Assembly (NCBI GenBank): GCA_951406725.2
Contig: OX597835.1
Coordinates: forward strand, 27,838,001 to 27,902,000
Direction: 5' to 3'
From: Octopus vulgaris
Taxonomy: Eukaryota
Length of the DNA stretch: 64,000 nt
The position numbers and the translations under genes were made by a program. Positions within the stretch are counted from its first letter, which is position 1. Every line of letters begins with the position of its first letter. Positions 72-52,968 of the stretch are shown piece after piece. The notes beneath the pieces were generated by a model. The model ran no database searches and was not told the origin of the DNA. It was given only the letters and a program-made list of their open reading frames with translations.

Positions 72-189
72 CTGATTAGAATGGTGAATTTTTCGAAGTG
101 GAAGCCAATGAAGTCCAAGAAGGCTGTCCCACAACATTCCTTTATTCCATACTTCAATAATCAATCCAGTGTCAAGTCTCATGGTTTCA
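72..189 (-). CDS. unc-13: unc-13/Munc13 C2A-domain coding exon (equivalent to vertebrate UNC13 exon 4)
   Basis: Minus strand reads ttttttcag|T GAA ACC ATG AGA ... AAT CAG|gttatt, 118 nt. Translation: (F)ETMRLDTGLIIEVWNKGMLWDSLLGLHWLPLRKIHHSNQ, matching the recalled Munc13 C2A motif [32 protein letters not shown]. Phase fits the upstream exon (TT|T = Phe). Not in the ORF track. Confidence 0.95.
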
Positions 190-3042: not shown

Positions 3043-3733
3043 ACTCCTACATACATACATACATACATTCATACATTGGGGCCCTGGGGTATGCAACACT
3101 CTGCCTAAATACCAATCATGAGAAATTAGGCTTCTCAAAACCAGAAAGGAGAAAGCTAATTTGAAGACTAGATATGCAACTATATGCATGAGAATACATA
3201 CATAAAGCAAAACATACAAATCATATACATATATAAATACATACAAATAAGAAAACCCTATTGTTGATGTTGAAATTCCAAATGAGGAGCTTTGAATCTA
3301 GGTTAGAAATGGGTTCTTTCTCTATTGGCAAGCAATCTTCAAATAAAACTGAGCAATTACGTACATACAGCTTCTATATTCGGGTTACAAATTTACATTT
3401 ATACCAATAATAATCAGAACACTTGGATTTGTAAGTAAATGCCTAACTGTCAGCTTGGACAATGCTTGGACTTTCAGAAAAATAGAATCAACCAACTGTT
3501 TCACACATTGAAAATAGAATCTGTAAGCGGAACAGTAAAACTATGCAAGACTTTTCTCAGGTTTAAAATGTGACATCGTTTTTGTTATTACATTCCAACG
3601 ATGGAGCATTGTATCTTTGTTAGAAACCAGCTACTTCTTCAGAGAAAGAATTTAGATGACTGAAAACAAAAGAGACATATATATGTATAGTCATCTAACA
3701 TATATATGTAGACTGACATATATATACATACAT

Positions 3734-3773
<40 letters not shown>

Positions 3774-3798
3774 ATATACACACATATATATTATATGC

Positions 3799-3835
<37 letters not shown>

Positions 3836-3969
3836 CATACACACATAGGTGGGTTGGGTACAAAAATTCAGGGTGAGTACTTGATAATTGTAAGCACCTG
3901 TATATACTATTTGGTGGTGTAGGTGGTGGAGTAAATTAATCAAAATAAAAACATGATGCCAAGAATTCA

Positions 3970-4047
3970 GCGGTACATATGTTTCGGGCCTTTATTAGAC
4001 GGATTTATAACAATGCATAATGTGTGTCTATGGCCTTCTTCAGCCGC
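3970..4047 (-). ncRNA. Type I hammerhead ribozyme motif (mirror copy, sense to the unc-13 pre-mRNA)
   Basis: Reverse complement of the 4214-4291 motif, with one substitution in the helix II region. Core intact. Confidence 0.8.
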
Positions 4048-4213
4048 GCACAATTACTACTTCAAGGACTACCTCATTCTACATTGAGTGAAAGACGAGA
4101 TTGACGCTTCGTTTTTGTGCTGGTGCCACACTATGTCGTACGCGACTGTGAGGATTTGCATCCCCAACGTAGAATTTATGATGTAATACATGTCCTTAAA
4201 GTAGTAATTGTGC

Positions 4214-4291
4214 GCGGCTGAAGAAGGCCATAGACACACATTATGCATTGTTATAAATCTGTCTAATAAAGGCCCGAAACATATGTACCGC
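4214..4291 (+). ncRNA. Type I hammerhead ribozyme motif
   Basis: GCGG-CTGAAGA-A-GGCCaTAGACA...TGTCTAataaaGGCC-C-GAAA-CATATG-TA-CCGC. Helix I is GCGG/CCGC, the CUGANGA and GAAA core is intact, helix III is the palindrome ACATATGT, and the GUA triplet predicts a cut after 4287. Confidence 0.8.
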
Positions 4292-4731
4292 TGAATTCTT
4301 GGCATCATGTTTTTATTTTGATTAATTTACATACACACATATATATATATATATATGCACATTATATATATATACATATATATACTCACACACACATATA
4401 TATATACACATATATATATATATACACACACACACATATATATATATATATGCATGTATATAGTTATCTAGCAATTCGTAAGTGAAAAAAAATAAACAAA
4501 TTGGTACTCATATATCTGTCAACAGAGTAGGTACATAAATCAAAGTACACAGTATTACAGATCCAATATAGACAGTCTTACCAATCTGGCTTTGGACTGG
4601 ATATTAGATATCATCAAATTACTCAATATCCGGCATGAAACCGATTGGTAAGACAAACTGTAAAGAATCTGTAATACTGCAAACTTAGGTTTATATATAT
4701 ATATATATTGTGTGTGTGTATATACACATTT

Positions 4732-20749: not shown

Positions 20750-20891
20750 ATACATTATTTACATTCAACACATATTTGTCCTCATCTTGTTTGTTGTTAA
20801 CACAACATTTCGACTTATATACCCTCCAGCCTTCTTCAGGTGTCTTGGGGAAATTTCGAACCTGGGTTCTCATTCCTAAGGTATTTTTTGA

Positions 20892-34000: not shown

Positions 34001-34100
34001 AACATGAAATCTTGCTCCCAGCTTGGGTTATTTCCTTTCACTTGAATTGTCGTCGATTTCACATTTTGAAGTTTCAGTGTCACATAAGTGTTATATCTCT
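34001..34100 (-). CDS. unc-13: unc-13/Munc13 C2A-domain coding exon (equivalent to vertebrate UNC13 exon 3)
   Basis: Minus strand reads tttttttccag|AG AGA TAT AAC ... TTC ATG TT|gtaagt, 100 nt. Translation: [32 protein letters not shown](F), nearly identical to the recalled Munc13 sequence [33 protein letters not shown]. Confidence 0.97.
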
Positions 34101-48134: not shown

Positions 48135-48322
48135 GTTCTATATTTAAGAGATGAGGAATTATATACATTATTTACATTATTTACATTTGACGGATATTTG
48201 TTCCTCATCTTGTTTGTTGTTAACACAACATTTCAGCTGATGTACCCTCCAGCCTTCATCAGGTGTCTTGGGGAAATTTTGAACCTGGATTCTCATTCCT
48301 AAGGTATTTTTCAATGTTGTTA

Positions 48323-51755: not shown

Positions 51756-51994
51756 GTTACGTAAAAGCCAGTATGTAAAGCTGTCCTTTATGCCCATGGC
51801 CCCTACTCCATCCACAAGCCATCGTTCTGACACCTACCCACCCTCAGTCATACTTTCCACTGCTATACTCTCCCTCCCTTTTCACTCTACTTCTTGTACC
51901 TATCTGTACCTATTCTTGCACCCAATATATCCCTGTTGAATCACTCCCCACAACATACCCTAATCCTCCCTCTGTCTACTTATGCCTCATGTAA

Positions 51995-52425
51995 GAATCA
52001 GCAACCATAATCTGAAAGATATTGAAGAATTTGTTTACCTCGGGGTGAATGGCCAAGAAATACAGAGGCAGAGTGGAGGATGTAAAGAACAGGATATCCA
52101 AAGCCCGGAGAACATTTTACCATCTAACAAAGGTATGGAGGAGCAGAAGTACAGGACGCAAAACAAGGCTGAAGCTGTTCAAGACATTGGACTGGCCAGT
52201 TTTACTCTACGGATGTGAAAACTGGAATGTGAGGAAAATGGAAGAAAAACACAACGGAGAACTTCCCATTCACATGCTTAAGGATAACCCTAATACTCAA
52301 CGTCAAGTGGCTGCAAAGAGCTTGACACAACACAGTTGAGATGATGAAGGGCATCAACAGGATCAGTGATGAAATAAGACACAAACACCGGAACTGGACG
52401 GGACACGTCCTCAGACAAGATCCAA
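51995..52425 (+). pseudogene. RTE-clade LINE ORF relic (post-RT region)
   Basis: IEEFVYLG / DVKNRISKARRTF...TRLKLFKTLDWPVLLYGCENW / WTGHVLR, with frameshifts. Confidence 0.85.
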
Positions 52426-52452
52426 GATCGAGAAAGCGGTTGTATGGTGGCA

Positions 52453-52968
52453 TTAGTCTTTTAGCATTTAAACTGGCCATATCCGGCCAAAAGTAATTCT
52501 GCTTGTTTTATGTTCAAACTGGCCATATCTGATCTCTCAGACCAACCCTACAATATCGTTTTAAAAATCTCATCAAAATCTCATAATTACAAGATAATGC
52601 ATCATCATCATCATCATCATCATCGTTTAGCGTCCGCTTTCCATGCTAGCATGGGTTGGACGGTTCAATTGGGGTCTGGGAAGCCAGAAGGCTGCACCAG
52701 GCCCAGTCTGACCTGGCAATGTTTCTACGGCTGGATGCCCTTCCTAACGCCAACCACTCCGTGAGTGTAGTGGTTGCTTTTTATGTGCCACTGGCATAGG
52801 TGCCAGACGAGGCTGGCAAACGGCCACGATCGGATGGTCCTTTTTACGTGCCACCAGCACGGGTGCTTTTTATGTGCCACCGCGATTAGTGCCAGCATGA
52901 TTAGTTCAAAACAATGTGGATAAAAAAGCATTAGTTTTGGCAGAATAATGTGAACACTAAAGGGTTAA
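52453..52968. mobile_element. Second TTAA-type MITE family (CCCTTTAGCATT ends) with a nested family B element
   Basis: Ends ...CTAAAGGG|TTAA. Homologous fragments at ~17790-17925, 25960-26280 and 44100-44270. Confidence 0.6.

Follow-up and report, generated by a model that had tools for sequence, protein, structure and literature searches.

Two opposed hammerhead motifs in a molluscan unc-13 intron: most likely one Penelope-like insertion and probably an inert passenger

Background

Do two hammerhead motifs facing away from each other inside an intron of a neural gene form a device that controls the gene, or are they the residue of a mobile element? The question is raised by a 64,000-nt stretch of DNA (hereafter the window, with positions counted from its first letter), for which an earlier note, made from the letters alone, described a near-perfect inverted repeat holding two intact hammerhead ribozymes in an unc-13 intron. 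The repeat was attributed to a recent Penelope-like element (PLE) or retrozyme-like insertion, and an editing-sensitive switch in the unc-13 pre-mRNA was proposed.

The anatomy of an inverted hammerhead pair is itself already published. Minimal hammerheads on opposite strands, 100-700 bp apart, were described by Cervera and de la Pena 2014 (PMC4209133), Penelope-13_HM is listed with a hammerhead on each strand (PMC8557442), and 235 hammerhead loci were reported from the giant squid (PMC6962438), so that cephalopods are known carriers. A search of the openly accessible literature for cephalopod hammerhead or PLE descriptions (subscription papers, Repbase, Dfam and some supplements lay outside the scope) yielded no paper on the present family.

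Results

The assignment of the host intron to unc-13 proved correct. Two exons on the minus strand (34001-34100 and 72-189) join in frame across an intron of 33.8 kb (190-34000), they match C2A chains of UNC-13 homolog A (E-value 5e-12) and molluscan unc-13 proteins, the species-labelled named matches among 41 proteins are all from molluscs, and tblastn searches with four of these as queries returned these two exons only. The window is self-repetitive for about half of its length (49% masked), and the intron contains 75 other inverted alignments of at least 80 nt between dispersed repeats, three of them with gaps under 2 kb; ARAGORN identified no tRNA over the window. At 51964-52493 on the plus strand, broken frames resemble by eye the final part of a reverse transcriptase region of the RTE/LINE type, and a weak match to DUF6451 (E-value 0.034) falls in the same place.

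Table 1. Features of the locus and its host gene, in window positions (strand "." denotes none assigned)
Feature	Positions	Strand	Remark
C2A exon of unc-13 that precedes the host intron	34001..34100	-	in-frame splice
C2A exon of unc-13 that follows the host intron; distance to the element about 3.7 kb	72..189	-	
Left flank, (TA)/(CA)-rich microsatellite, likely target site	3700..3848	.	
3' tail of the left copy, on one side only, 67 bp	3864..3930	-	contigs spanning tail and arm
Left arm, body of the inverted 5'-truncated copy; sense in unc-13 pre-mRNA	3931..4069	-	
Hammerhead motif of the left arm (minimal type I); cleavage predicted after 3974	3970..4047	-	mirrors the right copy
Spacer, 5' part of the right copy	4070..4191	+	
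Right arm, 3' end of the right copy (4070-4330); antisense in unc-13 pre-mRNA	4192..4330	+	
Hammerhead motif of the right arm (minimal type I); cleavage predicted after A4287	4214..4291	+	
Adenosine predicted to be edited to inosine (mirror position 3997), in the single UAG of the antisense arm	4264..4264	-	family level
Right flank, (TA)/(CA)-rich microsatellite	4331..4455	.	target-site duplication indistinguishable there

The inverted repeat was confirmed as described: the arms (Table 1), of 139 bp each and separated by a spacer of 122 bp, differ at exactly two positions (4001 G / 4260 A and 4063 C / 4198 T), and the exact inverted match reaches up to 70 nt, as compared with at most 18 nt across 500 dinucleotide shuffles. 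The arms lie where the earlier note placed them, but the element itself extends further, to about 3864, through the 67-bp tail, and forms a 467-bp stub (3864-4330). The tail opens with an AC-rich stretch, belongs to the repeat family described below, is crossed into the arm by contigs of that family (e.g. 3863-3984 and 3894-3999) and ends 110 nt past the predicted hammerhead cut. The right arm has no tail and passes directly into the microsatellite. Of the two copies in the stub, the left one (4069-3864) includes the tail and is 206 bp long, and the tailless right one (4070-4330) measures 261 bp. Positions 4070-4086 are imperfectly complementary to about 4166-4190, and this inner duplex (-11.0 kcal/mol) is the best among 97 overlapping windows, the median of which is -5.3. 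The motif scan revealed no further copy of the element within the 64-kb window.

Alignment of contigs from four of 24 sequencing runs (X1, X3, X6 and X8; three organism labels occur among the runs) to positions 3845-4225 revealed that the locus belongs to a many-copy repeat family, with 1190, 880, 296 and 117 contigs in the four runs; no copy-number meaning is given to summed contig depth. The best run contains 0.60 of the sampled words, and none of the listed contigs extends across the whole 467-bp stretch or carries the window's A4128. The 3' ends of the family fall into two classes, one at 3864 (20 contigs each in X1 and X3) and the other at 3932-3939, equivalent to the right arm's end at 4330; both run into (TA)n, and the two classes correspond to both ends of the present locus. 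Loose ends behind 4069 (four contigs in X1, one in X6) are the reverse complement of the spacer's 3' end, which indicates that the native order is the spacer in plus orientation followed by the arm, and hence that 4069|4070, where the two copies meet, is a head-to-head junction. Family sequence extends further in the 5' direction, beyond 4072-4076.

Subfamilies are also evident. In one (at 4069; four contigs in X1, one in X6) the arm and roughly 13 bases on its 5' side are the same, but the sequence further upstream is another, and one diverges directly after 3989, within helix II (10 contigs in X1, three in X8). Depth falls 5' of the hammerhead among the family contigs, which could reflect truncation or subfamily divergence. 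Both arms share a private letter (A3964/T4297), at a position where the other letter makes up at least 99.7% of family depth in all four runs; this fits a single template for both arms or a later conversion. That the insertion is recent, as had been supposed, is only loosely supported, as the present copy shows several private differences from the family. One X1 contig (depth 36.7) joins 3927 to 4080 and has no left arm; it may stem from an allele without that arm, or from a separate insertion whose junction is similar, and the depth remaining for the window's letter at 4102 (36.6) is close to that of this contig. Another X1 contig (172 nt, 18 differences, 16 gaps) crosses from the arm into the spacer as at the present locus.

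Scanning the window on both strands with a helix-aware motif search gave four matches, two in the arms and two from another family. The arm motifs point outward, away from the spacer. In the right motif, helix I (4214-4217 / 4288-4291) has 4 bp and no distal stem, helix II (4226-4229 / 4271-4274) has 4 bp and a 41-nt structured cap, the core consists of CUGAAGA (4218-4224), A4225, C4275 and GAAA (4276-4279), and the palindromic ACAUAUGU at 4279-4286 is accompanied by a GUA cut site. The minimal type I core (C3-A9, G12-A14, A15.1-U16.1, a cleavable H17 and helices I-II) is present in full, and to this extent the ribozymes are intact, as the earlier note called them. The description does not carry beyond the core letters: A4225 lies opposite C4275, a mismatch at the base of helix II in the lowest-energy register, neither motif folds better than its shuffles (z +0.36 and +0.88), and Rfam returned no match across the window at the gathering threshold, while of the matches at E <= 10 (49 in 3700-4600, one in 4195-4325) none is a hammerhead. 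A closing G10.1-C11.1 pair is possible only with a bulged C, at a cost of 2.2-3.4 kcal/mol. Because deletion of that C is absent from the listed family variants, the A-C opposition seems to be the family state; the literature search on 10.1-11.1 mismatches yielded nothing on this family. An axolotl motif mismatched at the base of helix II was reported to be 22% cut in an hour (PMC7229834). The lowest-energy fold of the right motif contains helices I and II and a 2-bp helix III (-13.2 kcal/mol). That of the left motif is not a hammerhead; the extension of helix II loses one pair there to the G at 4001, and helix I of this sense copy has a probability of 0.00-0.22 in three contexts without the opposite arm.

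The family appears to keep the ribozyme core, as judged from the listed variable places, which affect none of 37 core or helix positions and 37 of 291 positions elsewhere (p=0.009 among the listed places; were two of ten further places in the core, p would be 0.07). The loose ends show a change at the free position 7, a helix II change that keeps a wobble pair, and insertions in loop II. Exact-motif scans of metagenomes and viral contigs gave no matches. Looser patterns identified 1, 29 and 12 loci, all 42 of which were dismissed as chance since no similarity extends past the motif; three of them, compared with Rfam, gave no match. A GC-rich metagenomic contig (L004, 464-527, plus strand) exhibits a hammerhead-like sequence with the identical 4-bp helix I and an A-C opposition at helix II; it has no Rfam match at the gathering threshold and may be due to chance. 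A second repeat family occurs in the window itself, as two copies at 20795-20850 and 48218-48273 (both minus strand), which are about 81% alike over 250 nt and located beside (ATT)n. Its minimal hammerhead is decayed: the core reads CUGA-GA, helix II has 6 bp, loop III is absent and the cut would follow GUU. Its motif at 20839 lies on the sense strand of the unc-13 intron and has no antisense partner within the window.

A transcript of either strand would expose the antisense arm first and then form the 139-bp duplex. In the folding model, the inverted repeat reaches -271 kcal/mol and the ribozyme -13, the core, once emerged, has a pairing probability of 1.0, and the pre-mRNA duplex is predicted to bury the ribozyme, which agrees with the earlier suggestion that the antisense arm, being transcribed first, sequesters the sense copy. 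A transcript in this state would not cleave itself, and would likely be edited by ADAR before the intron decays. That the transcript needs such protection found no support, as the sense copy folds poorly even alone and the motif at 20839 in the same intron is unshielded. Cleavage as a dimer, which had also been envisaged, is not to be expected at this locus either, because the two motifs lie on opposite strands and no transcript contains two same-sense copies.

The inverted repeat is likely an ADAR substrate, as the earlier note anticipated. The antisense arm contains a single UAG among its 46 adenosines, and at the mirror position 3997 an A>G change was found in 10 contigs of the putative RNA run X8 (depth 150.7 of 1237.1, i.e. 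12%) and was absent from X1, X3 and X6 (depths 823,785, 288,610 and 30,581). The RNA status of X8 is a guess, the run comes from another sample and is enriched for minor subfamily letters (3926, 3946), and the A>G contigs are family-level and unassignable to the present locus; the change is therefore a hint of ADAR editing at the family level. According to Porath et al. 2017 (PMC5625713), a lizard Penelope is massively edited and a frog Harbinger is self-folding, and at hyper-edited sites of octopus the preference for a downstream G is reduced. Given the lizard Penelope, editing would be expected here rather than new.

Discussion

The element is likely a stub of a PLE, possibly a non-autonomous one. 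Membership is likely rather than proven because no RT or GIY-YIG partner was found, neither in the 467-bp stub nor beside or upstream of the element in the window. The Penelope-like origin proposed in the earlier note is nevertheless supported by several features expected of EN+ PLEs: an inverted 5'-truncated copy joined head to head, a tail at one end together with two family 3' termini, a hammerhead in the terminal repeat, and, in the family, targeting of (TA)n, which would also fit the Hydra or Neptune clade. Inverted 5'-truncated copies, one-sided tails and a preference for (TA)n were described for PLE insertions by Craig et al. 2021 (PMC8557442). Two more specific assignments were rejected. 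Identity with Naiad or Hydra-1_Obim would be based on two chance 10-letter matches in the supplement of PMC8557442, as far as this was available, and the hammerhead of Hydra-1_Obim differs; the spacer, which by eye could be taken for a decayed GIY-YIG end on the minus strand, gave no Pfam match for two stretches, and its native strand is plus. Within the scope of the literature searched, the molluscan family is apparently an uncatalogued one in a known class of PLE insertions, although it may be included in Repbase, Dfam or publications and supplements outside that scope.

How would such a locus have formed? We somewhat favour a scenario in which the element's enzyme primed copies from both cut (TA)n ends, and the copies were joined via the complement of 4070-4086. 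Synthesis of one DNA copy would have started at 3864, the outer of two internal start sites, and that of the other at 4330, the inner one, the two sites bracketing the tail; the 3' ends of the copies would then have come together where 4070-4086 imperfectly complements the 3' end of the spacer, and about six bases of the native join would have been lost. In the work of Frangieh et al. 2024 (PMC11167929), the PLE tail spans the distance from one internal RT start site to the other, the start lies in an AC-rich stretch, and cutting and extension take place on both target strands. The published alternative is self-priming on the antisense template, by which Arkhipova et al. 2013 (PMC3846280) explained the inverted pLTR, the tail and the junction palindromes of PLEs. 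Our search for twin priming in Penelope retrieved no paper on the present family.

Among the rival explanations, the one with the greatest consequences is that ADAR editing or helicases open the duplex, whereupon the sense hammerhead cuts the unc-13 pre-mRNA and reduces or reshapes its output. The gene is neural, the antisense arm comes first, the A>G change falls at the only UAG in a putative RNA run, and the duplex is exceptional in being near-perfect and short-looped (137/139 pairs, 122-nt loop), whereas the 75 other intronic inverted alignments reach at most 90.4% identity and have gaps of at least 440 nt. The energetics, however, make this exceedingly unlikely. When inosine was approximated in equilibrium folding by letting 10-100% of the antisense adenosines wobble or become unpairable, the probability of helices I and II stayed below 1e-20 throughout, and even with all 47 of them unpairable the duplex was still at least -126 kcal/mol strong and the ribozyme helices remained unformed, which in this model speaks against the editing-sensitive switch of the earlier note. 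Editing of the sense arm would in turn strike five core adenosines, and the sense copy hardly forms helix I even when freed of the opposite arm (see above). There is no dimer partner on the same strand, published minimal PLE hammerheads were inactive as monomers (PMC4209133) or required the element's protein for activity (PMC11167929), and the geometry is explained by insertion mechanics.

The remaining rivals concern the origin of the stretch. A fragment of a non-LTR retrozyme, i.e. of a tandem hammerhead repeat that spreads as circular RNA, would share with it the short, non-coding character and the 2-bp helix III with a tetraloop seen in invertebrate retrozymes (PMC7229834), and retrozymes have been proposed to be PLE derivatives (bioRxiv 10.64898/2026.07.22.740005). 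Yet this is very unlikely: the locus contains no head-to-tail unit, the listed family 3' ends enter (TA)n, a 4-bp helix I without a distal stem is of the minimal PLE type, and neither of the two listed joints is tandem (tail to spacer start; a further 165 loose ends lie beyond the list), so that the retrozyme-like half of the earlier attribution is not upheld by the listed joints and loose ends. A foldback or MITE-like element, moving as a fixed inverted-repeat unit, could account for the similar arm-to-spacer junction of the diverged X1 contig, but a recurrent junction is also expected from the inner complement, another contig shows a different left boundary, the ends are asymmetric with a tail on one of them only, the arms are natively joined also to the opposite end of the spacer, and the arm far exceeds the spacer in summed depth; we regard it as highly improbable. 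An assembly artefact might be suspected from the contig coverage given above and from the trouble that PLE inversions cause in assemblies (PMC8557442). It is extremely improbable for a pair of arms that differ at two sites, terminate at the family's two distinct termini and have an arm-to-spacer junction of a type crossed by the diverged contig. With the alternatives weighed, two truncated copies joined head to head in a microsatellite represent, with high probability, a single PLE insertion, in which the hammerhead is predicted to be buried and is probably inert.

A broader proposal is that burial acts as a safety catch: inverted stubs would silence themselves on either strand, persist in introns, such as that of unc-13, from which unshielded active copies are purged, and seed thousands of ADAR substrates. 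We consider this unlikely. Xenopus retrozyme copies are 42-44% intronic, but depleted from introns after normalising (bioRxiv 10.64898/2026.07.22.740005), which makes some selection against genic hammerheads plausible and keeps the proposal alive; the open literature yielded nothing on intronic shielding for the present family or on a switch of this kind. If true, this mollusc's neural pre-mRNAs would carry near-identical ADAR substrates with one dominant edited adenosine each (4264 in the present case).

The inverted stub probably does not switch the gene but is carried along harmlessly. An editing-controlled cut in the unc-13 pre-mRNA would be important if true, but the folding energetics speak against it. 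The value of the locus, a small one, lies in a clean example of two-ended PLE insertion anatomy in which the base of helix II shows an A-C variant, and the family is large enough for genome-wide tests of the origin of inverted arms and of host selection against unshielded sense hammerheads in introns.

Comparison with known systems

With EN+ PLE insertions the locus shares the inverted 5'-truncated copy joined head to head, the tail at one end, the microsatellite target, the imperfect junction palindrome, the hammerhead upstream of two 3' ends and the AC-rich first end. It differs in that no coding sequence is seen, the arm and tail of the present copy being without an open frame, and in the length of the tail, 67 bp as compared with 30-40 bp in published descriptions. 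With the minimal hammerheads of metazoan PLEs it shares the complete core, the 4-bp helix I without a defined loop 1, the extra base after A9, the palindromic helix III, the cut after GUA and the arrangement in opposite-strand pairs 100-700 bp apart. A mismatch at the base of helix II is likewise common to PLE motifs, with U-U in 14 of 34 rows of File S2 of PMC8557442 and C-A in PLE-X1_cBra of the same source, whereas here it is A-C and not U-U; the helix II cap is a 41-nt structured insert here and a loop of 3-10 nt in the PLE minimal hammerheads described.

Non-LTR retrozymes resemble the element in being short and non-coding and in having a type I motif with a 2-bp helix III and a tetraloop. 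They are, however, tandem and possess a canonical 6-bp helix I with loop-loop contacts, whereas the present element has neither and ends in a microsatellite. Finally, like the repeat-derived ADAR substrates of PMC5625713, the locus would supply a short-loop intronic duplex that stems from a mobile element and is likely edited; what distinguishes it is the ribozyme motif inside the duplex, with editing hinted at the family level.
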